Below are positions 6,700 through 25,954 of a stretch of DNA of 64,000 nt, one piece after another. The DNA is from Vicinamibacterales bacterium (GTDB taxonomy: Bacteria; Acidobacteriota; Vicinamibacteria; Vicinamibacterales; UBA8438): contig CBDCGH010000014.1 in NCBI GenBank assembly GCA_965216615.1, forward strand, positions 24,369-88,368, written 5' to 3'. A program made the translations under genes and the position numbers. Position 1 is the stretch's first letter, and every line of letters begins with the position of its first letter. A model generated the notes under the pieces. It saw only the letters and a list, made by a program, of their open reading frames with translations, did not search any database and was not told the origin of the DNA.

Positions 6700-6708
6700 T
6701 TGCACGAT

Positions 6709-7953: not shown

Positions 7954-8030
7954 CGTCCGCGCCCCGCGTGCGCTAGGAGTACTGCTGGTAGATCTGGCGA
8001 GGCTTACCTACGACAGCCACCGTCGTCTGC

Positions 8031-8261: not shown

Positions 8262-8402
8262 ACTCAAATGCGATATCGAGGGTTTGCCGATCTAGTCATG
8301 CAATCGGCAACGCGGGGGGACGACTTGACTGCTTTTACAACTTTTCTCCGTCTTGGGTACTCGGCTGGCGTGATGTAGTCTCTGGTGGACTGCGGAGGAG
8401 CG

Positions 8403-8920: not shown

Positions 8921-10297
8921 TCAGCTCTTTGGTAGCGTGACGCGAAACACGCTGCCGCCCCCGTCCGCGTTCTCGTAGGTCAAGTCGCCGTAGTGTGCCT
9001 CGACCGCCCACTTCGCGAGCGCCAAACCCAGACCGGCGCCAGTGCTGGCCGCAGACTGGTCGGACGCGCCGCGCCAGAAGCGATCGAAAATCCGATGCTG
9101 CACGGCCTCGGGTATTCCCGGTCCGGTATCGCGCACCTCGACGACAACGTGCTCGGCATCCTCCGACACGTGCATCTGGATGCGCCCCCCCCTGGGCGTG
9201 TACTTGATGGCGTTATCGACGAGGTTGATGAGGGCCTGCCTCACCACGAGACGATCACCAACGCACCGGCAGGTCTCGACGCCATCGACGGTCAAGGACT
9301 GTTCTTTCTCCTCGGCCAGGACCGAGAGATGGACCGCCACCCCGCGGCTCAGCTCGACGAGGTCGATGGTCTGGGCTGAGAGCTTGATCTGCCCGGTGTC
9401 ACCCTTTGATAGGAGCAGCAGCCGCTCGACAAGGCCGCGGAGCTTGTCCGCATCTTCGAGCATGTTGCCGATGACGGCGCGGTAGGCGTCTTCGTCACGC
9501 GCTTCGCGCAAGCCGACTTCGCCGACGCTGCGGATCGCGGTCAGGGGGGTGCGAAGCTCGTGGGAGACATGGGCCGTGAAGCGTCGCATCTGCTCGAACG
9601 ACGATTCGAGTCGCGCGAGGGTCGTGTTGAACACTGACGCCAGTCTCCCCAACTCGTCTTTTGGGTTCTCCACCGGCAGGCGTTCACCCAGCCGCTCGGC
9701 GGTGATTGACCGGGCCCGCTCGGCCATGCGGTTGATTGGGTCGAGGGCATCGCGCGCAAGCCAGTACCCGCCGAGCCCGGCGACGGCCACGCTCAGCGGG
9801 AGACCGAGCACCAGGACCAAGAACAGCTCGCGAAGCTCCTGTTGCATGGCCGCTTCAGACCACCCAACCTGGATGACCAGCGGCCGATCGGAGATGGTCA
9901 CCTCGTCCGTGAGGATGCGGAACGGCTGGGTGGGGGTCGACACCGAGACGATCCGTCCGTCGGGACGTCGGGCCAGCCCTTCGCTGGCGGGGACGGGCAA
10001 CCGCGTGGCAAGGGTGGTGCGGAAGACCGACTCGCCCTCCTGACTCCAGACCTGCAGCCAAGGGCTGTCGAAGTTCTCATCCCCATCCCACCAGACAAGG
10101 GAGCCATCTGCTTGTTGCTGGGCCATCGACGTGGCCCAGCTGAAATCGCCGCGCAAGCGCGCGTCGAGCGCGTTGGAGACGTTGAACCGCACGAGTGTGT
10201 AGACGGCGGCCGCGTAGAGGACCAGCACGAGCAGCGTCGTCGCTACGTGCAGCAGGGTGAGCCGCGCGCGAACTGTACGAAGCTTGGTCCACCGCAT
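8921..10297 (-). CDS. sensor histidine kinase (TM-periplasmic-TM-HAMP-HisKA-HATPase; CusS/CopS-like architecture)
   Basis: H-box HELRTPLTAI. N/G boxes LVDNAIKYT, DTGPGI and GLGLALAK. Its start overlaps the response-regulator stop (TGATG). Confidence 0.85.
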   Translation of the reverse strand: MRWTKLRTVRARLTLLHVATTLLVLVLYAAAVYTLVRFNVSNALDARLRGDFSWATSMAQQQADGSLVWWDGDENFDSPWLQVWSQEGESVFRTTLATRLPVPASEGLARRPDGRIVSVSTPTQPFRILTDEVTISDRPLVIQVGWSEAAMQQELRELFLVLVLGLPLSVAVAGLGGYWLARDALDPINRMAERARSITAERLGERLPVENPKDELGRLASVFNTTLARLESSFEQMRRFTAHVSHELRTPLTAIRSVGEVGLREARDEDAYRAVIGNMLEDADKLRGLVERLLLLSKGDTGQIKLSAQTIDLVELSRGVAVHLSVLAEEKEQSLTVDGVETCRCVGDRLVVRQALINLVDNAIKYTPRGGRIQMHVSEDAEHVVVEVRDTGPGIPEAVQHRIFDRFWRGASDQSAASTGAGLGLALAKWAVEAHYGDLTYENADGGGSVFRVTLPKS

Positions 10298-11028
10298 CAG
10301 ACGGGGTTCCTCCGCAGGACAAATCCGACCCCTCGCACGGTGTGCAGCAGTTGGGGTCGCCCTTCCTGGCTGAGCTTGCGTCGGAGACGCGAGACGTGGA
10401 CGTCGATGACATTGTCCAGCGTCGTGCTGCGAGCCGATTCTTTCCAGACCTCACGCGCGAGCGCATCTCGCGAGACCACTTGTCCCTCTGAGCTGGCGAG
10501 GTATTCGAGGAGATCGAACTCCTTGGCGGTCAGGGGAATCTCGCGCCCGTCGTATTGGACGTGACGGGCCCCGGGGTCAAGGGTCAGGCCCCCAATTGAA
10601 ATGGGGCCGGTCGAGGAGGCCCGTCCTCGGCGAAGGATGGCTTTGACCCGTGCCAGCAGCTCGGTGAACGCGAAGGGTTTCGCGAGGTAGTCGTCCGCCC
10701 CGCCGTCGAGGCCCGCGACACGATCCACGACGGCGTCCCGTGCCGTGAGAATGATGATCGGCGTGACGTCCCCGCCTTGTCGAAGCGCGGTCATGATCTC
10801 GAGTCCGTCGCGCCCTGGGAGACCGAGGTCGAGCAGAATCAAGTCGAACGATTCGTGAGTGGCGCGAAAAAACGCCGATTCCCCGGATTCCTCGACCCGG
10901 ACGACGTAGCCTTCGCCTTCCAGGCCCTCCCGTAGCGCGGTGGCCACCTTGTGCTCGTCCTCGACGACGAGCACTCGGGTCGGTTCGGAGGAGTCCGCGG
11001 TGGCTCCCAGGGAGGTCTCAGTCACCAT
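10297..11028 (-). CDS. OmpR/PhoB-family response regulator
   Basis: Receiver motifs VLVVEDE and DLILLDLGLPGRDG, plus a winged-helix C-terminus (LTAKEFDLLEYL, VDVHVSRLRRKL). Confidence 0.9.
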   Translation of the reverse strand: MVTETSLGATADSSEPTRVLVVEDEHKVATALREGLEGEGYVVRVEESGESAFFRATHESFDLILLDLGLPGRDGLEIMTALRQGGDVTPIIILTARDAVVDRVAGLDGGADDYLAKPFAFTELLARVKAILRRGRASSTGPISIGGLTLDPGARHVQYDGREIPLTAKEFDLLEYLASSEGQVVSRDALAREVWKESARSTTLDNVIDVHVSRLRRKLSQEGRPQLLHTVRGVGFVLRRNPV

Positions 11029-11191
11029 CTCGCTCAGGGCTGCAGTCTCAGAAGCGTCTCGTCATCGTCAGTAGGCACCGGAAGGAGCCATGACGGAAGC
11101 CTGAAGGTCGAATTCAGGAACTCTTAAGGTGTCCACGGCACCTGTTTCAATCATAGTGAAATCCCCGGCGGACGGCCGAAAGGAGCGTTCT

Positions 11192-11599
11192 GTGACACGC
11201 AGGCAAGTCTTCTCGCTCATCGCGCTGGTCGTTGCGTGGATGACTCCCGTGGGGAGTCACCATGCGGTGTCCACGGTCTACGACGTTGGGCAGACGACCA
11301 CCATTCGCGGGGTCGTCGAACGCATCGTCATTCGCCGCCCTCATCCGATCGTCCACCTCGTCGTGGACCTGGATGGCGAAGTCCGACGCACTTGGGTGGT
11401 GGAGCTCGACGATCCTGACGCCCGCCGAGCGGAAACTGGGGCATTGGCGTTGCAGCCCGGCGATCAGGTGGCTGTTTGCGGGAATCCCGGTCGGGACCCC
11501 GGAGAGTTCAAGCTGCGGATGTTGTCGCTCAAGCGCCCGTCAGACGCCTTCGTGCTGCGTAGTGACGTCGGGACGGAGTCGGCGACGTGCCGAGGATGA
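11192..11599 (+). CDS. DUF6152-like small periplasmic protein (family name from memory)
   Basis: A GTG at 11192 lies 7 nt after AAGGAG. The signal peptide ends ...TPVGS and the mature N-terminus is HHAVSTVYD. It is a paralog of 22022-22462 (mature HHAFSAEFD). Confidence 0.55.
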   Translation: MTRRQVFSLIALVVAWMTPVGSHHAVSTVYDVGQTTTIRGVVERIVIRRPHPIVHLVVDLDGEVRRTWVVELDDPDARRAETGALALQPGDQVAVCGNPGRDPGEFKLRMLSLKRPSDAFVLRSDVGTESATCRG

Positions 11600-11635: not shown

Positions 11636-14134
11636 GTGGTGTTGAGCGCAAAAGCAACAGTACCGGTTGGCAGGAGCCCAGCGCAGTGGCTGACAGTGAT
11701 AGGGCTTGTCGTTATGCTCATCGGATCGATCAGCGCGGGTGTGGCCTCGGCGCAGTCCAGCGGGACGATTCAGGGAGTGATCGTGGACCAGCTCGGCGCA
11801 CCAATGCCGGCGATGGTGACGCTGATTCAGGATGGACAATCCGTCTCGGCGACCGAAACCGACGCGACCGGAGGCTTTCTTTTCTGCGAGCTCAGTACCG
11901 GTCGGTATCGGGTGGAGGCCATGGCACCCGGGTTTGCGACGCACCTGTCGGAGCCGATCTACGTTGGGTCGGGCGAGGTCAACATTGAACTTGCCTTGTC
12001 GGTTGGGCCGATCGCGCAGCACGTCGTGGTGACGGCTGAGGCTGCCGAGACCACGCAAGCGCGAGTCGGAGCCCCCGTGACGGTGGTGGACCGGACGGAT
12101 CTGGATGCGATCGGGAACCCCGACGTGCTCGGCGCGCTGCGGACAGTGCCGGGAGCCCAGGTGGTGCAAACTGGTCAACGGGGCGGCGCGACGGCGCTTT
12201 TCGTACGAGGCGGTGCGTCCGATTTCAATAAGGTCCTCATCGACGGCGTCCCGGCGAATGACATCGGCGGAGCCTTTGACTTCGGGGGGCTGTCGGCGGC
12301 CGGGGTCGATCGGGTCGAAGTGCTCCGGACGGCAAACAGTGTCCAGTATGGTGCTGACGCACTGAGCGGGGTGATCAACGTCACGACCCCTCGCGGCCAC
12401 ACGTCGACCCCAGAATTGTCGTACTCGATTGGCGGTGGCAATCTGGGGACGGTTCGCCAAGAGCTGTCCGTCGGAGGCGTCGTCGACCGGTTCGACTACT
12501 TTTTCAACGTCTCGCGTTTCGATACCGACAACGACCTGCCGAACAACGCATTCAAGAACGACACGTTCGCGGGCCGGTTCGGTGTGGCGATTGGCTCAGC
12601 GACCGATCTGAGCGTCACGGTACGGCGAATCGACAGCGCGCTGGGTCTGCCGGGGGCTGTACTCTTCAACGGGCTTGTCGACGACTCCTCGCAGAGCGCC
12701 GAGCTGACATTCGTCGGCGTGACAGCGACCTCGCAAGTCAACGATCGCCTCCAGACCACGGTGCGGTTTGCCTCGAATGACCAGACCTCGCGCTTCGTCA
12801 ACAGCCAGCCGACCGGAGAGCCGTTCGATCCGTTTGGTTTCGGCGCCAACTATCTTGGCGAGCCGGTGACGATTGCCGGTGCAAATGGCTTCTCCGCGAG
12901 CGGCCGCGCCATCATGGACTTCGGCGGCGTGTACCCATCCCTGTTCGACTCTGATACCTCACGGCGTTCGGTGGCGGGGCAAGCAGACTATCGCCTGACA
13001 GACGTCCTGGACGTCTCGGGCGGTGTGCGGCTCGAGCACGAGGAAGGCAGTCAAGACGGGTCGTTTGGGGGGTCGTCAACCCAGCGAACCAACTACGGCG
13101 GGTTCGTTGAGGCGAGAGCTAGCTTCGGGAATCGCACCTACCTCACGGCTGGCTCCGGGTTGGACGACAACGAGATCTTCGGCTTCGCAGCCACACCGCG
13201 GGTGTCGGCGGCGGTCTACGTGCGACAGCCCACGCCCGAACCGCGGATGTTCGGCGATACCAAGCTGACGTTCAATGCTGGCCGCGGCATCAAGGCCCCG
13301 GTGGTATTTGATGAGCTCAACTCGCTTTTCGTCCTGCTGGAGGCCGCGCCGGGCGGAGCGGACGTCATTACCAATGCCGGTATCGAGCCGATCGGACCGG
13401 AGCGGAGCCGCAGCATTGACTTCGGGGTCGAGCAGGGGCTCTGGAACAACCGGGCGCGCGCGCGCGTCGCGTTCTTTCACAATGACTTCCGCGATCTTAT
13501 TGAGTTTGTCAGCAACTTCGCGCTGCCGGAGCTCGGCGTCGCGCCAAGTGCCGCCTTCGCTGTGCCCTTCGGCGCGACCGTCAACGCCTCGTCGTATCGG
13601 GCGCGAGGGATCGAAACGTCGGGAGACGTGGCCATCGGTGATGACCTACGGATCGGTGGCGGGTACATGTTCCTGGACGCGACCGTCAATGAGTCGTTCT
13701 CCGGAAGCGCGCTCTTTCCCAGTGTCAACCCGGCGTTTCCTGGCGTTCAGATCGGGCAGTTTTCACCGCTGGTAGGCGCCCGGCCGTTCCGCCGGCCGAC
13801 CCACTCGGGTAATCTGTTCGTAACGTATGGGCGCGGCCCCGCGAACGCCGCGATCGTCGCGACCTTTGTGGGGAAGTCTGATGACAGCACGTTTCTTTCC
13901 GATGCGTTCTTCGGGTCGTCGCTGCTCTTGCCGAACCACGATCTCGTGGACGGGCATCAGAAAGTAGACCTGAGCCTGTCATACGATCTTCACCCGCGAG
14001 CGCGCTGGCATATGAGTATCGAGAACCTGCTCGATCAGCGTTACGTGGCTTCCCCGGGTTTTCTGGCGCTTCCCCTGACTTTCAGAACCGGCCTTACGCT
14101 CACCCTGGGAGGCGAGGCGACCGCGACCCGCTGA
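11636..14134 (+). CDS. TonB-dependent receptor with an N-terminal carboxypeptidase-regulatory-like domain
   Basis: Signal peptide, then GTIQGVIVD...TGRYRVEA (CarboxypepD_reg-like). Plug-like segments ALRTVPGAQVVQTG and LFVRGG..., followed by a long beta-barrel. Confidence 0.85.
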   Translation: MVLSAKATVPVGRSPAQWLTVIGLVVMLIGSISAGVASAQSSGTIQGVIVDQLGAPMPAMVTLIQDGQSVSATETDATGGFLFCELSTGRYRVEAMAPGFATHLSEPIYVGSGEVNIELALSVGPIAQHVVVTAEAAETTQARVGAPVTVVDRTDLDAIGNPDVLGALRTVPGAQVVQTGQRGGATALFVRGGASDFNKVLIDGVPANDIGGAFDFGGLSAAGVDRVEVLRTANSVQYGADALSGVINVTTPRGHTSTPELSYSIGGGNLGTVRQELSVGGVVDRFDYFFNVSRFDTDNDLPNNAFKNDTFAGRFGVAIGSATDLSVTVRRIDSALGLPGAVLFNGLVDDSSQSAELTFVGVTATSQVNDRLQTTVRFASNDQTSRFVNSQPTGEPFDPFGFGANYLGEPVTIAGANGFSASGRAIMDFGGVYPSLFDSDTSRRSVAGQADYRLTDVLDVSGGVRLEHEEGSQDGSFGGSSTQRTNYGGFVEARASFGNRTYLTAGSGLDDNEIFGFAATPRVSAAVYVRQPTPEPRMFGDTKLTFNAGRGIKAPVVFDELNSLFVLLEAAPGGADVITNAGIEPIGPERSRSIDFGVEQGLWNNRARARVAFFHNDFRDLIEFVSNFALPELGVAPSAAFAVPFGATVNASSYRARGIETSGDVAIGDDLRIGGGYMFLDATVNESFSGSALFPSVNPAFPGVQIGQFSPLVGARPFRRPTHSGNLFVTYGRGPANAAIVATFVGKSDDSTFLSDAFFGSSLLLPNHDLVDGHQKVDLSLSYDLHPRARWHMSIENLLDQRYVASPGFLALPLTFRTGLTLTLGGEATATR

Positions 14135-14135
14135 C

Positions 14136-14699
14136 GTGCTGAACTACGCGCTCGCGATGCTGTGCGCCCTGGGTTCGGCGACGTTTTCCACGGCCGCCGT
14201 CCTGCGGTGGTCGGTTCCAGTGGGGGTCGTCAGCTTCCTGGCGGCGAGCACGTGGCTGACGCCCGATCCGGCTTGGACCGGTGCAACAGCCGCGCTCGCG
14301 TCGGCACTGTTATTGGTACGCCCACAGTCTTCTCTTCCAGCGGCCGCGATCGCAGGATGCCTCGCCGGGCTCTGGATGACGTTGCTCGAAGCCCAGGGCG
14401 TTCCGATGGTGGGAGCACTGAGTTTGGCAGCGGCCGTTCCCGCGGCGTCCGGCTGGATGGCACGCACCCGTGACGAGTTTGCGCCGTCGGCTCTGCGCGA
14501 AGACGCGCTACTGGCGATCGGGGGATTGGGCCTGGTCGTGGCGATGGGACCGGACATCTTGGCCGGTTGGCAGTCGGCGGGCTCGATGAACCTCGAGCCG
14601 GGTGGTGGGCGACAGGCCGCGATCGAAGTCTGGCTGATGGTGGCGATCGGTACTGCGGCGGTGGGAGGGGGCGCTCACGCGCTCTGGAGTCGGCGATGA
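14136..14699 (+). CDS. polytopic membrane protein of unknown function
   Basis: A 187-aa Ala/Leu-rich protein with several hydrophobic spans. The GTG start is 1 nt after the receptor stop, and the stop overlaps the next ATG (ATGA). Confidence 0.5.
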   Translation: MLNYALAMLCALGSATFSTAAVLRWSVPVGVVSFLAASTWLTPDPAWTGATAALASALLLVRPQSSLPAAAIAGCLAGLWMTLLEAQGVPMVGALSLAAAVPAASGWMARTRDEFAPSALREDALLAIGGLGLVVAMGPDILAGWQSAGSMNLEPGGGRQAAIEVWLMVAIGTAAVGGGAHALWSRR

Positions 14700-15316
14700 G
14701 TGTGCTCGGAACATTGGAGAACGGTCTGTTTGCGTTGAGCCAGGTGCTGCGGTTCCCGGTGATCGCGCTGCTATGGGTATGCGTGGCGATGGCGGTCTTT
14801 ATGTCGGCGGGCTGCGTCGTAGAGTTCCTCGCTCGGCGTCGCGAGCGATCTGGCTTCGACCTGAAGGCGTGGGTTGAAGATGGTGCCTTGTTGAAGGCCG
14901 AGGAATCTCGGCGCGGGCGGCTGCCGACTGCACTACAGGCGCTCTTGAGCGATGTCACACAGACCGACAAAGCGTCGTTGGACAACGGCGGCCTCGAGCA
15001 CCTCGTGCTGGAGCGGGAGGAACACGCGCGCCGCACGCTGAGCGGCTCGCGTCTCTTGGTACGAGTCGGACCGAGTCTAGGGCTCCTGGGTACGCTGATT
15101 CCGATGGGAACTGCGCTGGCGTCGCTGACGGCCGGCAACCTCGAGGCGATGGCCGGGCAGATGGTGGTGGCGTTTACGACTACCATCGTTGGTCTGTCGG
15201 CTGGGACCGTGGCATACGTCATTCAGATGGTGCGCCACGGGTGGGTCCACGAAACGATTCGTGAGCAGCGTTTCCTCGCCGAGCGTATTGCCGGCGAGCT
15301 GGCACAGGGCGAGTAG
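14696..15316 (+). CDS. MotA/TolQ/ExbB proton-channel family protein
   Basis: The segment LLVRVGPSLGLLGTLIPMGTAL...TTIVGL is typical of the ExbB/TolQ C-terminal channel region. The ATG at 14696 overlaps the upstream stop. Confidence 0.75.
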   Translation: MSVLGTLENGLFALSQVLRFPVIALLWVCVAMAVFMSAGCVVEFLARRRERSGFDLKAWVEDGALLKAEESRRGRLPTALQALLSDVTQTDKASLDNGGLEHLVLEREEHARRTLSGSRLLVRVGPSLGLLGTLIPMGTALASLTAGNLEAMAGQMVVAFTTTIVGLSAGTVAYVIQMVRHGWVHETIREQRFLAERIAGELAQGE

Positions 15317-15330
15317 TCCTGGAGGGCGGC

Positions 15331-15663
15331 ATGACTCGATTTCTTCACCTTCCGGCACCCGACGAGGGGATTGACGAAGACCCGCTGGCCGGCGTCGCCA
15401 ACATCTTCGACGTCTCGGTGGTCTTCATCGTTGGGTTGATGATCACGCTCTTTTCGGTCTACCGAATCGGCGACCTCGTCGATCCCGAAAGCGAGGTCAC
15501 GCTGGTGAAGACTAACGCCGATGGGTTGAGTGAGATCATCGTGAAACGGGGCACGGAGATCTCGGCCTACGAGCTCACAGGCGAGACGCTGGGAGGCCAA
15601 GGGGAGCGGCTCGGCACGGCCTATCGGTTGGCCAACGGACAGGTCATTTACGTCCCGGATTGA
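15331..15663 (+). CDS. DUF2149-like small membrane protein (family name from memory)
   Basis: A 110-aa protein with DPLAGVANIFDVSVVFIVGLMITLF. This gene type classically accompanies ExbB-like and CobN-like genes. Confidence 0.5.
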   Translation: MTRFLHLPAPDEGIDEDPLAGVANIFDVSVVFIVGLMITLFSVYRIGDLVDPESEVTLVKTNADGLSEIIVKRGTEISAYELTGETLGGQGERLGTAYRLANGQVIYVPD

Positions 15664-15714
15664 GGGGTCCGTAGTCGGGAGCGTGAGGGGCCCTAGGTCG
15701 GAGGTCGGGTCTTT

Positions 15715-18700
15715 GTGATGACGAGCAGACTGAGGAGCGTGAGCTGCGTCGCGATCGCGACCCTCGCGTTGTGCCTGTTGGCGCAGCCGGGGTGGGCGCA
15801 GTCGACCCGTGTTGCCTATCTCTTCTCCGACGGCCACCTCCCGGGTGTGCTGCGCGCCTACAAAGCACTGCTCGACGAGCGTCCAGATCTGCGGGGTGAG
15901 ATCGCGATCGATTTTCTGACCGAGTCGCTCTTTGACCGGGCCGATCCCGAAACGATCACCGGCGCCGATGTCCTGGTGTTCGACATCATGAACCAACAGA
16001 TGCTCGAACGCTTCGACGCGACGCATGATGTCGATCTCATCCGCACGATCAGCGACCGTGGCATGGTGCTCGCCGTGGGTGAGGGCCTGATGCCCCAAGA
16101 GCAGTATGTCGAGCAGGGCGTCGTGTGGGATTCGCGGGCTCGCGCCTTCTGGACCAACTGGGGATTTGCGAATCAGCTTGGCCTCCTCAAGCAGTCGCTG
16201 AGCATTGCGGGCGTCCCGGATCTGACGGTGCCGGATCCGCAGCCAAGCCTCGATGCTGGCTACTACTACCCGGATGGGGAGACCGGACAGGTCTTCGCCA
16301 CGTGGAATGATTTCGACGCCTGGAGAGCGGAACACGGTAAGCGGCGCCCCGGCGCGACCCGTGTGGCAGTCGGGTTCTACAAGTCCACCTACTACGCCGG
16401 CGATACCGCGCTGCTTGACGCCGTGATCGAAGAGATCGAGCAGCAGGGCGCCGAGGCGATTCCGGTCTTTGGTTACCCCGGTGCCGTGGCTTTCGAGAAT
16501 CTACTGATCGACGAGGCTGGCCAGGCACGAGCGCACGTTGCGCTCGCCTTCCTGTTTCGGTTCGCGAACTTCGAGGCGTCCACCGCGCTCGCGAAGCTTG
16601 ACATTCCGGTGATCAGCTTGATCAGCCTCTACGGACGGAGCGAAGACGAGTGGCGGGCGTCCGACCAGGGCCTGTCGATGTTCGAGGGCACGTTCCAGGT
16701 CGCGGTGCCGGAGCTGGCGGGGGTCGTCGCACCGACGGTGGTCGGCAGCCAAGAGCAAATTGATGATCCCGAGACCGGACTATCAATCGTCGTACGGCGC
16801 CCGATCGCCGCTCGCGTGACGCTTGCTGTTCAGCGTGCGCTGCGCTACGGGGCATTGGCCGGCAAGCCGAACGCCGAGAAGCGTCTCGCCGTCGTCTTCT
16901 ACAACTATCCGCCCGGCAAGGCCGGCATCGGCGCAAGCTACCTGAACGTGGCGGAGTCGCTGGCGAACATCCTTGAGCGACTCCGACGCGAGGGGTACGA
17001 GGTGGGCGACGGCGATCTCTCGGGCGATGCGCTTCTGACGGAGCTCACCGCGAAAGCGCGCAATGTCGGCGGTTATGCACCGGGAGAGCTCGATGCGCTT
17101 CTCGCCGAGGGGGCGGCTGTTCGGGTCTCGATGGCCGAGTACCAAGGGTGGCTCGAAGGATACGCGCCGTCGCTCCAGGCGAAGATCGTGGAGGACTGGG
17201 GCGCACCCGAGGACGCCACGCTGATGGCGGCGGCCGGGGAGTTCGTCATCCCCGTGGTGCGGTACGGCAACGTCGTGGTCTTGCCTCAGCCTGCCCGGGG
17301 ATGGGGCGAGGATCTCGACCAGCTGTATCACGCGGACGACCTAGCTCCCCACCACCAGTACGTCGCAACCTATGCTTGGCTCCGACAGGCCTTCCGAGCC
17401 GATGCCGTGGTCCACCTCGGGACGCACGGGACGTTGGAGTGGCTTGACGGCAAGGACATCGGCCTGACGTCGGAGGACGCACCTGACGCGCTCATCGCCG
17501 ACCTTCCCAACCTGTACGTCTACAACGTCGACGTCGTGGGCGAGGGCCTCGTCGCGCGACGGCGAGGCATGGCGACCCTAATCGACCACATGGTGCCTCC
17601 GTTCCGCAAGGGGGGGCTGTTGCCGGAGCTGACCGCGCTCAGTGAGAGCGTCAACGACTACCACGGCAGCGTGCACAGCAATGCGGAGTTGGCCAATGCG
17701 TTTCTCGGGCAGATCCGCGACCAGGTCATCGAGCTCGGTATCGCCAAGGACCTCGACCTCGATCTGGTACGTGTCGAGAGCCTCGACCACGAGGCGCTGC
17801 ACGAGATTGAAGACTACATGGCCGAGCTGCGTGATCAGAACATCCCGTTCGGGCTGCACGCGTTCGGCCGCGTTCCCGAGGCGTCGCACCGCGCATCGAC
17901 CGTCGAGGCGATCGTCTCGACGGATCGCTCACTCATGCCCGACGCCGCGGAGGTGCTTGCAGAGGACATGGAGAGGCGAATCGTGGAGTCGGGTCCACGC
18001 GAGCTCGGCAGCCTGGTCCGTTCGTTGCGAGCCGGCTACGTGGCGGCTGGGGTCGGCGGCGAGCCTATCCGCAATCCGGATGCCTATCCAACCGGGAAGA
18101 ACTTCTACGGAATCGACCCCGACAAGGTGCCGAAGCCGGCGGCGTGGGATATCGGAGTCCGTCTAGCCGACCAAATGCTGGCTGGGCACCTCGAGACGAA
18201 CGGTGCGTACCCGCGAAAGGTCTCGTTCGTGATCTGGGGCGACGAAACGATGCGGCACCAAGGTGTGCTCGAGTCGCAGATCTTCCATCTACTCGGAACC
18301 CGGCCGGTGTGGGACGCCAGGGGAAAGGTCATCGATGTCGAGGTCGTGCCCAGCGCGCAGCTCGGCCGGCCGCGCGTCGACATCGTGATCGCGTCGGCGG
18401 CGGAGGGCATGTTCTCCAACGTGACGAGGCTGATGGACGAGGCGGTGCAGCGCGTCAAGGTGATCGAAGAGGCAAACAACTACGTCCGCCGACACTATCT
18501 CCGGACGCGATCGACGCTCATCAACCAAGGGTACGCGGAGGAGGATGCCGACCGTCGGGCGGGCGTTCGCATCTTCGATGAGGCGCCCGGCGTCTTCAAC
18601 CTCAACACCTCCGGGATCGTGACCGCCAGCGGTAGCTGGGACACCGACCGAGGGATGGCAGACGAATACCTGTCAAAGATGGGACACGCCTACGGGAACG

Positions 18701-19668
18701 GTTTCTGGGGCGAGCCGATGGAGGATGTGTTCCGGATGGCTCTGTCGGGAACTGAGAAGGTCGTGCATAGCAGCTCCACGATGCTCTATGGCGCGCTGGA
18801 TAACGACGACTTCTACATGTATATGGGCGGCCTGGCTACGGCCATCCGCAATATCGATGGCACGACGCCCGAGCTCGTGGTCACCAACACACGAGACCCG
18901 GGACGACCGGAGATGACGGCGATCGACAAGTTCGTTGGAACCGAGCTGCGGTCACGGTACGTCAATCCCACATGGATCGAGGGCATGCAGCGCGAGGGCT
19001 ATGCCGGGGCAGGGGAGATGCGCGCGTTTGTCGAGTACCTCTGGGGCTGGGACGCGACGGTGACCGATGTCGTCGATGACGCGATGTGGCAGGAGTCCTT
19101 CGCGGTCTACGTCGAGGACAAGCACGAGCTCGACATGAAGGCGTTCTTCGAAGCCGAGTCGCCGTTTGCCTACCAGGACATGACCGGTCGGATGATGGAG
19201 ACGATTCGAAAAGGGTATTGGGCAGCCGATCGCGAGACGCTGGACCGGTTGCTCACGGAGTACGTCGAGAGTGTGAACACTCACGGAGTCGGTTGCGCGG
19301 AGCACACCTGCGGGAATCCTCGCCTCCTGGAGTACGTGCTCGACCAAGCTCGCATTGCCGAGATTCCTGCTGTCGATCTCGAGGCGTTCGAGCAGGCGTT
19401 GGAGCAGGCCCTCGGGATCGATATCGAAACGGCAGCCCGGGCGGCTGAAGCATTCGTGCGCCGAAACGAGGCCGAGTCGATCATGTCCGAGAACCTCCAG
19501 GGCCTTCGCATGGAAGAGTCGGTGTCGGAGCTCGAGACCTCCCCCGCGGTGCCGGCGTCCGACAGCTTTGGGGATAGCGAACGCGCGGCGCTGTGGGTCG
19601 GAGTGCCCGTGCTGGGACTGCTGGTGGCGTGGCGGGTCTGGCAGCGTCGCGGGCGCGCGCGCCAATGA
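15715..19668 (+). CDS. CobN/Mg-chelatase large-subunit family protein (HmuS-like) with a signal peptide and a C-terminal TM anchor
   Basis: Length is 1317 aa. It carries the CobN-type motifs VFYNYPPGKAGIGASYLNV and VHLGTHGTLEWLDGK. N-terminus is MMTSRLRSVSCVAIATLALCLLAQPGWAQ. C-terminus is ALWVGVPVLGLLVAWRVWQRRGRARQ. Confidence 0.85.
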   Translation: MMTSRLRSVSCVAIATLALCLLAQPGWAQSTRVAYLFSDGHLPGVLRAYKALLDERPDLRGEIAIDFLTESLFDRADPETITGADVLVFDIMNQQMLERFDATHDVDLIRTISDRGMVLAVGEGLMPQEQYVEQGVVWDSRARAFWTNWGFANQLGLLKQSLSIAGVPDLTVPDPQPSLDAGYYYPDGETGQVFATWNDFDAWRAEHGKRRPGATRVAVGFYKSTYYAGDTALLDAVIEEIEQQGAEAIPVFGYPGAVAFENLLIDEAGQARAHVALAFLFRFANFEASTALAKLDIPVISLISLYGRSEDEWRASDQGLSMFEGTFQVAVPELAGVVAPTVVGSQEQIDDPETGLSIVVRRPIAARVTLAVQRALRYGALAGKPNAEKRLAVVFYNYPPGKAGIGASYLNVAESLANILERLRREGYEVGDGDLSGDALLTELTAKARNVGGYAPGELDALLAEGAAVRVSMAEYQGWLEGYAPSLQAKIVEDWGAPEDATLMAAAGEFVIPVVRYGNVVVLPQPARGWGEDLDQLYHADDLAPHHQYVATYAWLRQAFRADAVVHLGTHGTLEWLDGKDIGLTSEDAPDALIADLPNLYVYNVDVVGEGLVARRRGMATLIDHMVPPFRKGGLLPELTALSESVNDYHGSVHSNAELANAFLGQIRDQVIELGIAKDLDLDLVRVESLDHEALHEIEDYMAELRDQNIPFGLHAFGRVPEASHRASTVEAIVSTDRSLMPDAAEVLAEDMERRIVESGPRELGSLVRSLRAGYVAAGVGGEPIRNPDAYPTGKNFYGIDPDKVPKPAAWDIGVRLADQMLAGHLETNGAYPRKVSFVIWGDETMRHQGVLESQIFHLLGTRPVWDARGKVIDVEVVPSAQLGRPRVDIVIASAAEGMFSNVTRLMDEAVQRVKVIEEANNYVRRHYLRTRSTLINQGYAEEDADRRAGVRIFDEAPGVFNLNTSGIVTASGSWDTDRGMADEYLSKMGHAYGNGFWGEPMEDVFRMALSGTEKVVHSSSTMLYGALDNDDFYMYMGGLATAIRNIDGTTPELVVTNTRDPGRPEMTAIDKFVGTELRSRYVNPTWIEGMQREGYAGAGEMRAFVEYLWGWDATVTDVVDDAMWQESFAVYVEDKHELDMKAFFEAESPFAYQDMTGRMMETIRKGYWAADRETLDRLLTEYVESVNTHGVGCAEHTCGNPRLLEYVLDQARIAEIPAVDLEAFEQALEQALGIDIETAARAAEAFVRRNEAESIMSENLQGLRMEESVSELETSPAVPASDSFGDSERAALWVGVPVLGLLVAWRVWQRRGRARQ

Positions 19669-20855
19669 CCGAGATCGGTCGTGGCCCGGTCGTTTGGCTT
19701 GTCGCAGTGCTGCTTCTCGCAGGCGGCGCGTCCGGGCCCCGGCAGGTATCCCTGAGCGGCAAAGGCGCGTACGAAGCCAGCCTCCAAACGACCGAACGTG
19801 GATTTGTCGTGGCGTGGCATGACTACCGCGACGGTAACGCCGAGATCTACGCGCGCGTCCTGGATGTCGACGGACGAGCGGCCGGCCCGGAGGTCCGACT
19901 GACCCATAGCCCTGCACTCTCCTTCGAGGCCGATGTGGCAGTTGCGGGTGACGGCACGGACCTAATCGTCGCGTGGTACGAGCACCCACGTCACGAGCCC
20001 CTAGAGGCCTGGGTCGGTCGGTCGACGCAGACAGGTGAGAGTCTGTGGCAGCGGCAGCTGGCCACATCTGGGCGCCAGGGCAGGAATCCGCTCGTCCGCG
20101 TGATCGGCAACGCGCTGTTCTGCGCCTGGGTGGAAGAGAGCGACGGCGAGACGGCTGTGTGGGCTCAGTGGTTCAACATGGCTGGGGAATCGTTGGGGGA
20201 ACGGACGCGTCTCGGGCCAGCGGGCGAGACGACGTGGAATCTCAACGCGGTGCTACACGCCGACGGCAGAGTGTGGGTCGTCTACGATGCAATCGCCGGG
20301 ACGAAAGCGGAGGAGCTCTTCCTGGTGGAGGTCGACTGGCCAGACGCGAGTAGGTCCGCGAAGGTCACTCGAGTGAGGCTGACCGATGACGACGGCTTTG
20401 CGTCAAAGTATCCAGACATCGATATAGAGGTCGAGACGGGTCGAGTTGCGTTGGCGTGGTTCGACGAGCGCGACGGAAATCGCGAGGTTTATCTCGCCGT
20501 GGTCTCGCCACAGGCATTGATGTCGGGTCTGAGCGAGGCTCAGCAGGCGAGGGTGACGGATACGCCGGATGAGTCGATCGGTGCCTATCTGGCCTGGAAT
20601 GGTGACCGCCTTGGCCTCGCGTGGTCAGACGAGGTGAGGCGGCAGCACGAGATCTTCTTTGCGCTGTACGACTCCTCAGGACGCTCTCTTGGGACGCCGC
20701 GGCGTCTCACGGCCAATCCGACCGCGTCGTTGATTCCGGCGATTGCCCGTTCGGGCGACGGTTTCGCGTTGGTCTGGAACGAGGACGTCATCGAGGACCG
20801 GGGGACCCACGAGACTGGCGGCAACTCCGAGGTCGTCTTTTCTCTGATACACTGA
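19665..20855 (+). CDS. exported repeat protein (beta-propeller-like) of unknown function
   Basis: The ATG at 19665 overlaps the CobN-like stop (ATGA). There is an N-terminal hydrophobic segment and six or seven repeats of the type (V/L)AW.D.RDGN.E(I/V)Y. Confidence 0.55.
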   Translation: MTEIGRGPVVWLVAVLLLAGGASGPRQVSLSGKGAYEASLQTTERGFVVAWHDYRDGNAEIYARVLDVDGRAAGPEVRLTHSPALSFEADVAVAGDGTDLIVAWYEHPRHEPLEAWVGRSTQTGESLWQRQLATSGRQGRNPLVRVIGNALFCAWVEESDGETAVWAQWFNMAGESLGERTRLGPAGETTWNLNAVLHADGRVWVVYDAIAGTKAEELFLVEVDWPDASRSAKVTRVRLTDDDGFASKYPDIDIEVETGRVALAWFDERDGNREVYLAVVSPQALMSGLSEAQQARVTDTPDESIGAYLAWNGDRLGLAWSDEVRRQHEIFFALYDSSGRSLGTPRRLTANPTASLIPAIARSGDGFALVWNEDVIEDRGTHETGGNSEVVFSLIH

Positions 20856-21008: not shown

Positions 21009-21917
21009 ATGAAAGCTCGTGCACGCATACTTTTTCGAAATGGGCTGCTTGCCGTGGTCGCAGTCGCAGCCGCGTTCGCACTGTTCTCGACCGTAGCCGT
21101 TGAGCCAGTCGCCGGTCAGACCGGGGACTACGAGCCGATGAAGACGCCCGACGGCAATGCAGACATGAACGGGATCTGGCAGGCAATTGGTGCCCACCAC
21201 CATGACATCGAGCCGCACGCGGCGCGTATGGGCCCGGTGGTCGAACTAGCGGCCCTCGGCGCGGTTCCCGGCGGCTTGGGCATCGTGGAGGGTGGCGAGA
21301 TTCCGTACACGCCGGAAGCTCGAGCCGAGCAGCAAGAGAACTTGGAGTCTTGGGTCGACCGCGACCCGGCGGCGAAGTGCTACATGCCAGGGATTCCCCG
21401 GGCAACCTACATGCCCTATCCGTTTCAGATTGTTCAGACCTCCGAGTACATCTTGATCGCTTACGAGTTCGCGAGCTCGAGCCGAATCGTCTACATGAAC
21501 CGGCCCGATATGGAGGCTCCGGTGAATACGTGGATGGGTCACTCTCGCGGCCGCTGGGAGGGGAACACGCTCGTGATTGATGTCGCCGACCAGGTCCCGG
21601 AGACCTGGCTGGATCGGTCGGGTAACCATCACAGCGATCAGATTCACGTCGTCGAGCGCTACACGTTGATCAGCGAGAATCACATCGAGTACGAGGCGAC
21701 GATCGAAGATCCCGGGGTGTACACGCGGCCCTGGACGATCAAGTTGCCGCTCTACCGTCGGGTCGACGAGAACATGCAGCTGCTGGAATACAAGTGCGTC
21801 GAGTTCGCCGAAGAGCTCATGTATGGACACCTCCGCAAGGATCCGGATCTGACGCCGGCCTACCGCGCGAGTGGCCATGGGTCGAATCGCGACATGGTCC
21901 CGGAGCCGCCGCAGTAG
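21009..21917 (+). CDS. exported hypothetical protein
   Basis: Strong SD and a signal peptide (MKARARILFRNGLLAVVAVAAAFALFS). I recognise no named domain. Confidence 0.55.
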   Translation: MKARARILFRNGLLAVVAVAAAFALFSTVAVEPVAGQTGDYEPMKTPDGNADMNGIWQAIGAHHHDIEPHAARMGPVVELAALGAVPGGLGIVEGGEIPYTPEARAEQQENLESWVDRDPAAKCYMPGIPRATYMPYPFQIVQTSEYILIAYEFASSSRIVYMNRPDMEAPVNTWMGHSRGRWEGNTLVIDVADQVPETWLDRSGNHHSDQIHVVERYTLISENHIEYEATIEDPGVYTRPWTIKLPLYRRVDENMQLLEYKCVEFAEELMYGHLRKDPDLTPAYRASGHGSNRDMVPEPPQ

Positions 21918-22021
21918 CGGTTGCTAGACGGGTGTAAGTGGGCCAGGTCAGTTTAATTTGTTGTAAAATAGAGGAGAGTTTGATGCGAAGTAACTGCTTG
22001 CTTATGGAGGAGGCGAGACCG

Positions 22022-22462
22022 ATGCGAACAAGACTAACCGTCGCGGTCGCCGGCGTGGCACTGCTGGCAGCAGCATTCTCGGTGCCGGTAGTGGCACATC
22101 ATGCGTTCTCGGCGGAGTTTGATGCGAATGTCCCGCTCCACATGGAGGGCAAAGTCGTCAAGATGGAGTGGATTAATCCCCACGCCTGGGTTCATATTGA
22201 AGTGATGGCCGACGACGGCACCGCGACTGTGTGGATGGTCGAGGGGGGAACGCCAAACACCTTGTTCCGTCGCGGCTTCACCCAGGATTCGCTGGCGATC
22301 GGGACAGAGATCGTCGTTGACGGCTATCAGGCGAAGGACGGGTCGAACAAGATGAACGGTCGCGACCTGACCTTTACCGATGGTCGGAAGCTGTTCATGG
22401 GTTCGTCCGGCACGGGCGCGCCTCAGGACGGCCGCGATGCGACCGAGCCTGGCAACAACTAG
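22022..22462 (+). CDS. DUF6152-like small periplasmic protein
   Basis: GGAGGAGG precedes the ATG at 22022. The signal peptide is cleaved before HHAFSAEFDANVPL. It is a paralog of 11192-11599. Confidence 0.6.
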   Translation: MRTRLTVAVAGVALLAAAFSVPVVAHHAFSAEFDANVPLHMEGKVVKMEWINPHAWVHIEVMADDGTATVWMVEGGTPNTLFRRGFTQDSLAIGTEIVVDGYQAKDGSNKMNGRDLTFTDGRKLFMGSSGTGAPQDGRDATEPGNN

Positions 22463-22501
22463 GCCAGCGCCGTAAGCAACAATAAGCTTCGAGAACACAG
22501 A

Positions 22502-22545
22502 CCCCTTGGGAGCGCTGCTGAGGCGCCCCCAAGGGGTTTTCTTTA
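22502..22545 (+). terminator. intrinsic (originally bidirectional) terminator: 14-bp stem (13 pairs), 7-nt loop, TTTTCTTTA tract
   Basis: CCCCTTGGGAGCGC-TGCTGAG-GCGCCCCCAAGGGG is followed by TTTTCTTTA. The IS unit is inserted into the T-tract. Confidence 0.7.
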
Positions 22546-22599: not shown

Positions 22600-23577
22600 A
22601 TGGCACGAGCACATAAAGCCCCTGGAAAAGCCCACAGGACTGGACTCTCTCTCGATCAACTCTACGCCAAGTTCCCCACCGAATCTATTGCCCGGGTATG
22701 GTTTGAGCAGGTGCGCTGGCCGGATGGTCGGGCCTGCCCGCGCTGCGGCAACATGGAGACAACCGAGGCGAAGAACGGTGGCACGATGCCCTATCACTGT
22801 AGCCCCTGTCGCCGCTACTTCAGCGTCAAGACCGGGACCGTGATGCAGTCCAGCAAGCTCCCGATCCGAACCTGGATCATCGTCATGTATCTCATGTCCA
22901 CGAGCCTGAAAGGCGTCGCCAGCATGAAGCTTCACCGGGACCTCGGCATCACACAGAAGACGGCCTGGATGATGGCGCAGAAGATCCGCGAAGGGTGGAA
23001 GTCTGGTGCGAAGCTGTCTGGCATCGTCGAGATCGACGAAACCTACATCGGCGGGAAGGAACGGAACAAGCACCGCGCGAAGCGCCAGCACGATGGACGT
23101 GGGCCGGTCGGGAAGGTCGCGGTCGTGGGTGCCATCCAGCGAGGCGGGAAGGTCGTCGCCAAGCCGATCCCGAACACCGACGAAGCCACGCTGATGGGGT
23201 TTGTCGCTGAGACGGTGTCACCGCAGTCGACGATCTACACCGACGGGAGCGCGTCCTACACGGACGCCGACGGCACCTACATCCATCAAGCGGTCAGACA
23301 CAGCGTCGGCGAGTACGTCCGAGGGCAAGCCCACACGAACGAGATCGAGAGCTTCTGGAGTTTGCTGAAGCGGGCGCACATGGGCACGTTCCACAAGCTC
23401 AGCCCGAAGCACCTGCACCGCTACGTCACCGAGTTCGCCGGACGAAAGAACGTCCGGAACGAAGATACGATCACGCAGATGGCTTGCCTCGCCCGCGGCC
23501 TGGACGGGAAGCTGATGCCCTGGAAGCTGCTGACGGCTGGCCCCCGGGCCGCTGGCCCTGCCCCAAAGACTGCCTGA
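22600..23577 (+). CDS. IS1595-family (ISXO2-like DDE) transposase
   Basis: N-terminal zinc ribbon CPRCG...CSPCRRYFSVKTGT. Catalytic-region motifs EIDETYIGG, IYTDGSASY and HTNEIESFWSLLKR. The 325-aa ORF is uninterrupted. Confidence 0.9.
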   Translation: MARAHKAPGKAHRTGLSLDQLYAKFPTESIARVWFEQVRWPDGRACPRCGNMETTEAKNGGTMPYHCSPCRRYFSVKTGTVMQSSKLPIRTWIIVMYLMSTSLKGVASMKLHRDLGITQKTAWMMAQKIREGWKSGAKLSGIVEIDETYIGGKERNKHRAKRQHDGRGPVGKVAVVGAIQRGGKVVAKPIPNTDEATLMGFVAETVSPQSTIYTDGSASYTDADGTYIHQAVRHSVGEYVRGQAHTNEIESFWSLLKRAHMGTFHKLSPKHLHRYVTEFAGRKNVRNEDTITQMACLARGLDGKLMPWKLLTAGPRAAGPAPKTA

Positions 23578-23816
23578 TCGTCGCGTCCCTGCAAATCGCG
23601 GCGGCGATCTCTTTACCGGTGGCCGGGATCGTGTTCACGATCCGATTCGTCACGGGGCGGCCTGGTTTCTTCGTTATGGCGTCTCTCCGTTTCGTCCTGA
23701 CACGGCACTGAGTAGCCCTTCAAGTAAGCCTTCCACTCTGGCCAGACGTTCGCCGTGATCACGAACATGTGTGTCCATCCGCAACACCATCCCTGCGATG
23801 CCGATGCCGACCACTA

Positions 23817-25774: not shown

Positions 25775-25954
25775 AGCGACGGTATCCCCTTCTTGGGATT
25801 GCCCGCGACCGGAAGTGGTCACCGGGCCAGTCGCCACAACAACCTCAAGCTGTGCGCCAGGGTTCCCGCCTATTCCCCCTGGAAGGGGTGTCGTATTCAG
25901 CAGGTGGCCCGATGTCGGACCAGCCTGAGATTGTCGTGGCGATGGAAGGGTAGA

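Follow-up and report, generated by a model that had tools for sequence, protein, structure and literature searches.

An exported CobN-like protein and its conserved operon in Vicinamibacterales: a likely metal or metallo-tetrapyrrole acquisition module outside the haem branch

Gene content and organization of the operon

A 64-kb stretch of a Vicinamibacterales (Acidobacteriota) genome, referred to below as the window, was analysed with an open reading frame (ORF) listing together with Pfam and NCBIfam scans, and was found to harbor a tightly spaced operon of six genes at 11636-20855 on the plus strand, the largest of which encodes a CobN-like protein of 1317 amino acids (aa). The operon is strongly conserved, and it is of the same broad kind as the Hmu locus of Bacteroidota, BtuS and the genes PA1922-1925 of Pseudomonas aeruginosa. 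Its predicted products suggest that it probably forms an envelope-spanning module for the acquisition of a chelated transition metal or a metallo-tetrapyrrole, on a branch other than the haem branch. Judged from its sequence, the CobN-like protein is not a biosynthetic cobaltochelatase, and it also fails the sequence tests for a haem dechelatase of the HmuS type. The six genes are as follows.

11636-14134, plus strand: TonB-dependent receptor, 832 aa; Pfam CarboxypepD_reg, Plug and barrel domains
14136/14157-14699, plus strand: small polytopic inner-membrane protein, 187 aa from the GTG at 14136 or 180 aa from the ATG at 14157
14696-15316, plus strand: MotA/TolQ/ExbB-family proton-channel protein, 206 aa; PF01618, E = 5e-11
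15331-15663, plus strand: DUF2149 protein, 110 aa; PF09919, E = 5e-28
15715-19668, plus strand: CobN/ChlH/HmuS-superfamily protein of the 'LDNDD' type, 1317 aa; CobN-Mg_chel, E = 2.5e-303
19665-20855, plus strand: periplasmic beta-propeller with PD40/TolB-like repeats, 396 aa; AlphaFold model

The gap between the receptor and membrane-protein genes is 1 nucleotide (nt) with the GTG start or 22 nt with the ATG start, an ATGA overlap joins the membrane-protein and ExbB-like genes, and gaps of 14 nt and 51 nt then precede the DUF2149 and CobN-like genes, respectively. The CobN-like and propeller genes share a second ATGA overlap and are translationally coupled. The true start of the ExbB-like gene is the ATG at 14696, the 249-aa ORF listed there being an over-extension. 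The ORFs, the Pfam matches and the junctions all bear out the six tightly packed plus-strand genes of the preliminary description, and the CobN-Mg_chel, MotA_ExbB, DUF2149 and TonB receptor domains that it had expected were all matched. Its statement that the window lacks a ChlI/ChlD partner, TonB and ExbD also held, with no match in any window ORF in phmmer searches with ExbB, ExbD and TonB of Trichlorobacter (Geobacter) lovleyi, for which the sensitivity towards TonB is limited, or with a ChlID-type chelatase of Ralstonia, HmuY and CobW.

Conservation of the module across related loci

A degenerate-pattern scan with one genome per species detected 340 genomes with this DUF2149 type, and the window proteins were mapped onto the best 80 loci of the scan, all of them from close relatives. 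Nearly all of these loci belong to Acidobacteriota, mainly Vicinamibacterales, with some from Bryobacteraceae, Thermoanaerobaculia and 'Ca. Multivorans' and a few from bins labelled Steroidobacteraceae or other Proteobacteria. The genome scan contained no P. aeruginosa, archaeal or further Bacteroidota loci, and the outside comparators used below were drawn from a plasmid collection. The closest genomes are metagenome-assembled genomes (MAGs) of Vicinamibacterales, in agreement with the non-Bacteroidota origin proposed earlier, and in the closest species genome (OZ244656.1) the CobN-like and DUF2149 proteins are 87% and 98% identical to those of the window, respectively.

The four genes for the small membrane protein, the ExbB-like protein, the DUF2149 protein and the CobN-like protein are colinear in 62 of the 67 evaluable loci, so the synteny in Acidobacteriota that the preliminary description had proposed to analyse is kept in other species and is not a matter of chance. 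In 37 of 64 loci the CobN-like gene is followed directly by the propeller gene. What stays constant is therefore this four-gene core, in most cases together with the propeller. The receptor, which the preliminary description had counted among the core, is not part of this unit: a TonB-dependent receptor of any kind lies within 10 kb in 52 of the 80 loci, and an orthologue of the window receptor (>600 bits) in 15, often with a repeat box (described below) on its 5′ side. Homologues of the response regulator and histidine kinase genes found beside the operon in the window occur within 10 kb of the module in 20 loci, genes for DUF6152 proteins lie near it in 19, and a DUF6152 gene paired with one for a secreted 302-aa protein (p302) is located 2-4 kb 3′ of it in 14. 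Common as they are near the module, the genes for the receptor, DUF6152 and the two-component system thus vary from locus to locus.

The CobN-like protein is predicted to be exported and differs from biosynthetic CobN

Reading of the CobN-like sequence revealed a typical signal peptide at the N-terminus (MTSRLRSVSCVAIATLALCLLAQPGWA/QS) and, at the C-terminus (ALWVGVPVLGLLVAWRVW), a hydrophobic helix followed by a basic tail. All 15 DUF2149-linked CobN-like proteins examined, which come from Acidobacteriota, T. lovleyi, Runella, Bacteroides finegoldii (HmuS), Pseudoalteromonas and Azospirillum Sp7, carry an N-terminal signal peptide or transmembrane (TM) helix together with a C-terminal TM helix, and one Cupriavidus paralogue without a nearby DUF2149 gene also has both membrane signals. 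None of five cytoplasmic CobN-type comparators has either signal; four of these stand in cob-gene contexts (Ralstonia, Nitratireductor, Azospirillum B510 and Haloferax) and one is a Cupriavidus paralogue. The window protein is accordingly described here as a predicted exported protein that is tethered to the inner membrane via its C-terminal helix. The large subunits of class I chelatases are cytoplasmic, are driven by the AAA+ proteins CobST/ChlID and are encoded in biosynthetic clusters. From what is known of that class, a periplasmic location would therefore leave no room for cooperation with the cytoplasmic, ATP-dependent CobST/ChlID.

A neighbour-joining (NJ) tree of 19 sequences (MAFFT alignment, 1132 columns, 100 bootstraps) placed the five cytoplasmic CobN-type proteins in a clade of their own with 100% bootstrap support, apart from all the exported ones, so that the clustering with bona fide cobaltochelatases which the preliminary description had considered as a contrary outcome was not found. 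The window clade is nearest to T. lovleyi and Runella, and HmuS forms the most distant exported branch. BLAST identities to the window protein were 40% over 1205 aa for T. lovleyi, 35% for Runella and about 33% for the other exported branches, including HmuS over the aligned part. Its sequence matches in the PDB were HmuS (499 bits), CobN (454 bits) and ChlH (390 bits), and it scored below every NCBIfam CobN and BchH cut-off, the best CobN model giving 817 bits against a cut-off of 1248. The protein resembles the class I chelatases CobN, ChlH and BchH in being homologous over the full six-domain length, with 27-35% identity to the CobN comparators in the BLAST-aligned regions, and in having both HxGxHG and an acidic, D-x-D-D-like motif in domain V. 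It differs from them in its predicted export and membrane tether, in its separate clade and in being encoded with proton-channel-type proteins.

An ordinary cobaltochelatase CobN of aerobic B12 biosynthesis, with CobS and CobT encoded elsewhere, can be regarded as effectively refuted. It would suit the name 'cobaltochelatase subunit CobN' that close homologues bear in databases, the strong Pfam CobN-Mg_chel match, the resemblance of LDNDD to the DSDD motif of CobN and the links to B12 riboswitches in orthologous loci. Yet the signal peptide and C-terminal anchor are absent from the cytoplasmic CobN-types examined, every NCBIfam CobN equivalog cut-off is missed, the separation from the cytoplasmic CobN-type clade has 100% bootstrap support, no cob genes were found among the neighbours in the window or in relatives with called genes, and the gene is translationally coupled to those of periplasmic and membrane proteins. 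The database name is misleading for this clade, and taking it at face value would lead to overprediction of aerobic B12 biosynthesis among Acidobacteriota.

Comparison with HmuS and the Hmu locus

HmuS (PDB 9d26) is a periplasm-facing, membrane-bound haem dechelatase encoded in hmuYRSTUV, with a membrane segment at each end, a domain IV that contains a Met-rich insertion some 120 aa long, and the haem ligands Met79 and His254 (PMC12583661). It contains the superfamily-wide motif HFG(T/A)HG with the essential His538, and a domain V motif, LSLDHxxEFMGG, with Glu1212 and with His1209, which serves as axial ligand or as general acid; the same authors point to numerous homologues of distant taxa that have no assignment (PMC12583661). 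At the position of the domain V motif the window protein reads GALDNDDFYMYMGG, so that His1209 is replaced by Asp and Glu1212 by Met; the same motif, also read as LDNDDFYMYMGG, has the acidic LDNDDFYMY in place of the His/Glu pair. The Asp/Met substitution was observed in all eight Acidobacteriota-type members aligned, while HmuS of B. finegoldii has SLDHVYEF. LDNDD is invariant in the Acidobacteriota clade and is also found in T. lovleyi (LDNDDFFQY), in Runella (LDNDDFFGF) and in the exported Cupriavidus_A paralogue, and the HmuS-like SxDHxxE occurs in the alignment only in B. finegoldii HmuS and the Azospirillum Sp7 protein. The latter (L093, 3491-8547, plasmid p4 of A. brasilense) reads LSTDHPFEY and may represent a proteobacterial HmuS-like dechelatase.

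The Met-rich insertion is absent from the window protein, of which residues 734-754 face 698-925 of HmuS in the HMMER alignment; none was present in the MAFFT alignment either. A His of the window protein pairs with His254 in the pairwise comparison, but the column holds Asp in the other Acidobacteriota members, and Met79 lies outside the aligned region. The superfamily motif VVHLGTHGTLEW (HLGTHG) is kept, as it is in all 19 aligned sequences, and does not discriminate between the branches.

As regards the locus as a whole, the Hmu-like core of the preliminary description stood in its gene content (receptor, exported CobN-like protein, MotA/ExbB-like protein, DUF2149 and small membrane protein) and fell short in the HmuS residues and the insertion. 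The window and hmuYRSTUV have in common a TonB receptor, a periplasm-facing CobN-superfamily protein with membrane segments at both ends, a MotA/ExbB-family protein (HmuU), a DUF2149 protein (HmuV) and a small polytopic protein at the position of HmuT; neither has an AAA+ partner, and the catalytic His of HxGTHG is kept. They differ in the gene order, which is T-U-V-S-like in the window and S-T-U-V in Hmu, in the extra beta-propeller gene and in the lack of HmuY, for which a phmmer search with the B. finegoldii protein gave no match in the window, confirming what had been described. Further differences are that the window receptor is not orthologous to HmuR, that the membrane protein has no detectable similarity to HmuT, and that loci of the window type are linked to a two-component system and, in orthologues, to B12 riboswitches.

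The window receptor has a TonB-box-like HVVVTAE, reaches no NCBIfam specificity cut-off (the best, TonB-B12, gave 118 against 600 bits and covers the plug domain only), lacks the FRAP and NPNL motifs of haem receptors and scores 29.7 bits with HmuR. For the small membrane protein, no Pfam or NCBIfam family was detected in its 180-aa form. A profile of 21 sequences gave hhalign probabilities of ≤0.1 against DUF2162 of T. lovleyi, HmuT of B. finegoldii and the UreH/NicO-like permease of Runella, and Pfam searches with each of the 21 members returned, at a limit of E = 10, only noise, including one DUF2162 match at E = 5. Since there is no profile similarity, the equivalence of this protein to HmuT, DUF2162 or the UreH/NicO permease is positional only, and the second position of the operon is held by a different small membrane protein in each lineage, without detectable similarity among them.

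Relatives outside the clade

Occurrence of the core outside Bacteroidota is already known, so the idea that it is peculiar to that phylum was not borne out. In P. aeruginosa, PA1922-1925 encode a receptor and CobN-like, MotA/ExbB-like and DUF2149 proteins under Zur regulation (PMC4542158, PMC9431628), are induced 44- to 147-fold by zinc starvation (PMC4542158, PMC9431628, PMC8531726, PMC13083405) and are regarded as a metal (Zn/Co) acquisition system of unexplained function (PMC4542158, PMC9431628, PMC8531726). Compared by composition as given in these papers, they share with the window the same four protein families in one non-Bacteroidota operon, and differ in their order (receptor, CobN-like, ExbB-like, DUF2149), in that no small membrane protein or propeller is reported, and in Zur repression as opposed to the two-component system link of the window. 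Hmu-like operons without HmuY and with a cobalamin riboswitch on the 5′ side have been described in Bacteroides (PMC10100974).

Similar gene sets were observed in the plasmid collection from Trichlorobacter, Runella, Pseudoalteromonas and Azospirillum. Plasmid pGLOV01 of T. lovleyi carries an annotated but uncharacterised series of receptor, DUF2162, MotA/ExbB, DUF2149, CobN-like, ExbB, ExbD, TonB and second receptor, in which the receptor, membrane protein, MotA-like, DUF2149 and CobN-like genes stand in the same order as in the window. Its CobN-like protein is the closest relative outside the Acidobacteriota-type clade, with the same LDNDDF and the same topology. The T. lovleyi operon differs in having two tandem cobalamin riboswitches immediately 5′ of the first receptor and lying inside a cobamide biosynthesis cluster, in its recognisable DUF2162, its own ExbB-ExbD-TonB set and its second receptor, and in the lack of a propeller, DUF6152 and two-component system. 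Plasmid pRUNSL01 of Runella encodes a receptor, a NicO/UreH-like Ni permease (HxxxxDH), and MotA-like, DUF2149 and CobN-like proteins within a [NiFe]-hydrogenase cluster, where hypABF lie on one side of them and hypCDE on the other. Azospirillum Sp7 has CobN-like, MotA and DUF2149 genes, then a cobalamin riboswitch and an ATP-binding cassette (ABC) importer of the iron/B12 type, and Pseudoalteromonas has a divergent receptor followed by ExbB-like, DUF2149 and CobN-like genes and a second receptor.

Cobalamin riboswitches at orthologous modules

Rfam-verified cobalamin riboswitches abut the module in five orthologous loci (L003, L016, L033, L047 and L069), and in another one, L038, a riboswitch lies directly 5′ of the CobN-like gene; both findings are new here. 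The L038 aptamer runs from 8712 to 8539 on the minus strand (91.8 bits) and stops 30 nt short of the GTG (8509) with which the CobN-like gene begins. The L003 riboswitch precedes a BtuFCD-like ABC importer and a receptor, which are divergent from the module and stand directly back-to-back with it; those of L016 and L033 each head a divergent receptor, and that of L047 separates the CobN-like gene from a receptor gene further downstream. The preliminary description had looked to a B12 regulon elsewhere as a sign against its proposal; cobalamin riboswitches were in fact found close beside the module in orthologous loci. Because these riboswitches are located at orthologous modules, cobalt or a corrinoid rather than haem is indicated, and there are moderate, though not conclusive, grounds for assigning the clade to the cobalt or corrinoid economy.

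The divergent receptor forms one orthogroup, which 22 of 80 loci have beside the module and which is under riboswitch control in three genomes; the window carries the other receptor type. The intergenic region shared by the divergent receptor and the module contains two to four copies of an 11-bp-phased repeat. In L038, a Vicinamibacterales MAG (CBDAUL010000002.1), the CobN-like gene (4502-8509) is followed by a receptor gene and is inverted relative to the genes for the membrane, ExbB-like and DUF2149 proteins. Candidate B12 boxes found with a relaxed regular expression in L024, L028, L035, L051 and L070 were false positives that Rfam did not confirm, and an exact-core B12-box candidate in L065 was likewise unconfirmed.

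A phased repeat and the adjacent two-component system

Four further features lie 5′ of the receptor gene.

8921-10297, minus strand: sensor histidine kinase, CusS/CzcS/CopS type; HAMP, HisKA and HATPase_c (Pfam)
10297-11028, minus strand: OmpR-family response regulator, CusR/CzcR/CopR type; Response_reg and Trans_reg_C (Pfam)
11101-11128, plus strand: 11-bp-phased half-sites CTGAAG / TTCAGG / CTTAAG; motif scan
11192-11599, plus strand: DUF6152 protein (DUF6152a), 135 aa; PF19649, E = 6e-12

Aligned upstream regions revealed a direct repeat phased at 11 bp, TTCAG-N5-CTT(C/A)AG (CTTMAG), often with three half-sites, which on the opposite strand reads CTGAAG-N5-CTGAAG. Together the two patterns number 172 in the 1.47 Mb of related loci, compared with about one occurrence in shuffles. 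The repeat is found upstream of the membrane-protein gene (the operon start), of the separately encoded receptor orthologue, of DUF6152 and of the response regulator and histidine kinase genes; it is the only conserved upstream element found, and it is not Zur-like. That it marks the operon, its receptor and the adjacent two-component system is also new here. The window has a single exact TTCAG-N5-CTTMAG site in its 64 kb, at 11113-11128, extended by a third half-site to 11101-11128, between the start of the divergent response regulator gene (11028) and that of the DUF6152 gene (11192). Regulators of the OmpR/PhoB family bind direct repeats phased at 11 bp. The site is a candidate for binding by the response regulator, and in this genome the adjacent two-component system of the heavy-metal type probably governs expression of the operon by way of this site; the genes from DUF6152a through the propeller may be inferred to form one unit under this control, with DUF6152a as its likely first gene.

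The response regulator scored 218 bits against NCBIfam TIGR01387 (cut-off 279) and the kinase 280 bits against TIGR01386 (cut-off 292.55). The periplasmic part of the kinase has no obvious His, Cys or Met cluster, and for this reason its signal is not readable from the sequence.

The ExbB-like and DUF2149 proteins

The MotA_ExbB match of the ExbB-like protein corresponds to its C-terminal two-helix region, and weak MotA/PomA matches were obtained in the PDB. The DUF2149 family is small (359 clusters at 50% identity). The model of the window member (predicted local distance difference test, pLDDT, 83) has one TM helix at residues 18-43 and then a six-stranded, all-beta periplasmic domain, and all of 54 diverse members keep Asp27 in this helix. 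The topology parallels that of ExbD, TolR and MotB, each with one TM helix that carries an essential Asp, yet neither sequence nor fold is similar to ExbD: a PDB profile search returned no ExbD or TolR, hhalign against T. lovleyi ExbD gave a probability of 0.2, and Foldseek with the AlphaFold model found no match for the all-beta domain. The window resembles the ExbB-ExbD, TolQ-TolR and MotA-MotB stator systems in having the channel subunit (PF01618) and differs in that phmmer found no third component of the TonB/TolA type in the window.

Function, substrate and alternative explanations

Metal or tetrapyrrole acquisition, as first proposed, is the best reading of the locus. In such a module the receptor, energised with a TonB encoded elsewhere, would import a metal complex into the periplasm, where the tethered CobN-like protein would bind it and remove or exchange the metal; the small membrane protein or another permease would then pass the product inward, and the ExbB-like/DUF2149 pair would use the proton-motive force to energise either the receptor or the CobN-like protein. 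Cobalt or a corrinoid is the metal economy most likely to be served, although even if the module acts in acquisition we hold this with somewhat less than even confidence; Ni, Zn, Cu and Fe chelates are possible substrates. Cobalt or corrinoid is favoured because of the riboswitch links in orthologues and the closest outside relative, that of T. lovleyi. Relatives that share LDNDD include the T. lovleyi protein, encoded in an operon with B12 riboswitches, and the Runella protein, encoded in a [NiFe]-hydrogenase maturation cluster beside a Ni permease.

A number of observations weigh against this interpretation or against parts of it. A verified cobalamin riboswitch lies within 10 kb in only eight of some 85 orthologous loci, the majority of these riboswitches control a neighbouring receptor or ABC importer and not the module, and the window itself contains no riboswitch or other Rfam element. 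Among about 20 window proteins screened there is no cob, cbi or metal-permease gene, and the CobW search was negative. No receptor was found within 10 kb in 28 of the 80 loci, 15 of them full length, which makes the link between receptor and module a loose one. A PepSY_TM protein follows the divergent receptor in 25 loci (5002-8561 in L010, and 24 others). PepSY_TM proteins are associated with periplasm-facing ferric-siderophore reductases, and since the pairing of receptor and PepSY_TM is typical of ferric-siderophore systems, iron may also be the metal taken up. Two-component systems of the type found here usually activate efflux at metal excess and not uptake. The NJ tree has 19 sequences and leaves out PA1923, ChlH and archaeal members, and DUF2149 is the presumed stator partner of the MotA/ExbB-like protein on the basis of topology and adjacency only.

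The same architecture might instead serve another metal, such as Zn (as proposed for PA1922-1925), Ni or Cu, without any connection to B12, a possibility to which we give roughly a one-in-several standing, clearly below that of the module as interpreted above. The core gene set is that of PA1922-1925, for which zinc starvation raises expression by a factor above 100 (PMC4542158, PMC9431628), the Runella relative lies within a maturation cluster for a Ni-dependent hydrogenase together with a Ni permease, the adjacent two-component system is of the Cus/Czc/Cop type, the N-terminal His-His and the NPH of the co-regulated DUF6152 proteins look like a periplasmic metal site, and the window has no riboswitch. 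Set against these points, no regulator or box of the Zur, NikR or CueR type was identified, the nearest outside relative, at 40% identity, is under B12-riboswitch control, and several orthologous loci have cobalamin riboswitches, one of them directly on the CobN-like gene. Less probable still is a functional equivalent of Hmu, in which the receptor would import haem and the CobN-like protein would remove its iron to yield protoporphyrin IX, as HmuS of B. thetaiotaomicron does. HmuS is the best PDB match, ahead of CobN, the export and anchor topology and the MotA/ExbB-like and DUF2149 partners are shared with it, the equivalent of its essential His538 is present, and the PepSY_TM reductase-like genes, which in relatives lie next to a co-regulated receptor, would fit an involvement of iron. 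But Asp and Met replace His1209 and Glu1212 in every Acidobacteriota member, the Met-rich insertion is missing, the clade does not conserve the His that aligns with His254, there is no HmuY, the receptor is not HmuR-like and has no FRAP/NPNL motifs, and HmuS is the most distant exported branch of the tree. The regulatory links found lead to B12 riboswitches and to a two-component system of the heavy-metal type, with no control of the iron or haem type seen, Fur boxes not having been specifically searched. The HmuS-type haem dechelation suggested by the preliminary description is therefore not the default reading, as His1209/Glu1212, the Met-rich insertion and a conserved His254 are all wanting.

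A separate question concerns what the ExbB-like/DUF2149 pair powers. Although we consider this rather unlikely, it might be a dedicated motor of the exported CobN-like protein, possibly acting via the C-terminal TM helix of the latter, and not an energiser of the receptor. The pair would be tied to the CobN-like protein and not to the receptor because it is colinear with it even where no receptor is nearby, and because the T. lovleyi operon also holds a full ExbB-ExbD-TonB set. The colinearity in 62 of 67 loci, the 28 of 80 loci without a receptor and the unrelatedness of DUF2149 to ExbD fit such a motor mildly. If it is true, a proton-driven stator would replace the AAA+ ATPase CobST/ChlID and power metal insertion or extraction by a class I chelatase homologue in the periplasm, a compartment free of ATP.

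The exported CobN-like proteins are, to our knowledge, a large and almost unstudied chelatase branch in which HmuS alone has a demonstrated activity. Abundant soil Acidobacteriota carry a well-conserved member in hundreds of genomes, with a distinct active-site motif and accessory proteins of its own. The repeat box of the two-component system and the cobalamin riboswitches of orthologous loci provide two regulatory handles, which make TonB-dependent uptake followed by periplasmic demetallation testable as a general strategy (Fe, Co, Ni, Zn), and the branch prompts one to ask how a homologue of class I chelatases is energised beyond the cytoplasm.

Accessory proteins and flanking features

Three further features follow the operon.

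21009-21917, plus strand: secreted 302-aa protein (p302), without a Pfam family
21983-22462, plus strand: second DUF6152 protein (DUF6152b), 159 aa; Pfam, E = 3e-31
22501-22537, plus strand: GC-rich hairpin followed by a T run, terminator-like; terminator scan and sequence reading

The propeller-like repeat protein of the preliminary description gave a confident beta-propeller model in AlphaFold (pLDDT 92.4, predicted template modelling score 0.90) with propeller structure matches, and one homologue matches the PD40 family. A lipobox cysteine is present in most homologues and absent from the window copy, whose start (19665-19740) reads LLLAGGASG compared with, for example, ILASCAAG in relatives; in this strain the protein may be signal-anchored or soluble and not lipid-anchored. 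DUF6152 genes had been placed at both ends of the operon, and both are present, the second one coming after p302 and not after the propeller. The p302-DUF6152b pair may belong to the same transcript or form a separate unit. The hairpin at 22501-22537 is the first strong terminator-like site 3′ of the gene array; on the plus strand the scan gave only a 5-pair sub-stem at 22525-22537 followed by TTTCTTT, the full 15-pair hairpin being scored on the minus strand.

In the DUF6152 proteins of the window and of L009-L083, the signal peptide ends just before a conserved His-His (AHHAFSAEFD or SHHAVSTVYD), with a conserved NPH about 30 residues further on. The mature N-terminus begins with HHA in DUF6152a, and DUF6152b contains AHHAFSAEFD and NPH; this N-terminal His together with the further conserved His resembles a histidine-brace or periplasmic metal site. 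No mention of DUF6152 was found in the literature searched. DUF6152a is often divergent from the response regulator and histidine kinase genes, with the repeat box on its 5′ side.

In other Vicinamibacterales, the genes for a cytochrome c′-like protein, two DUF6644 proteins, p302 and DUF6152 form a contiguous five-gene cluster on the plus strand (17091-20311 in L044 and 17072-20270 in L010), which in L044 comes directly after the gene for a 520-aa protein that follows the module. The window has the first three genes of this cluster at 27425-29029, about 5 kb away from p302-DUF6152b (21009-22462), and the spacer between them is occupied by transposase genes and a minus-strand gene for an NHL-repeat protein. 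The transposase genes directly 3′ of the locus (22600-24668, and 20142-21310 of L001, equivalent to about 25856-27024 of the window) are of the IS1595, DDE_3 and IS3 types, the last as an rve/HTH_Tnp_1 pair. A Transposase_mut gene lies 5′ of the locus at about 7034-8311. The close relative L002 harbors a different element (DDE_Tnp_1) at the corresponding place, suggesting that the flanks of the locus are prone to rearrangement.

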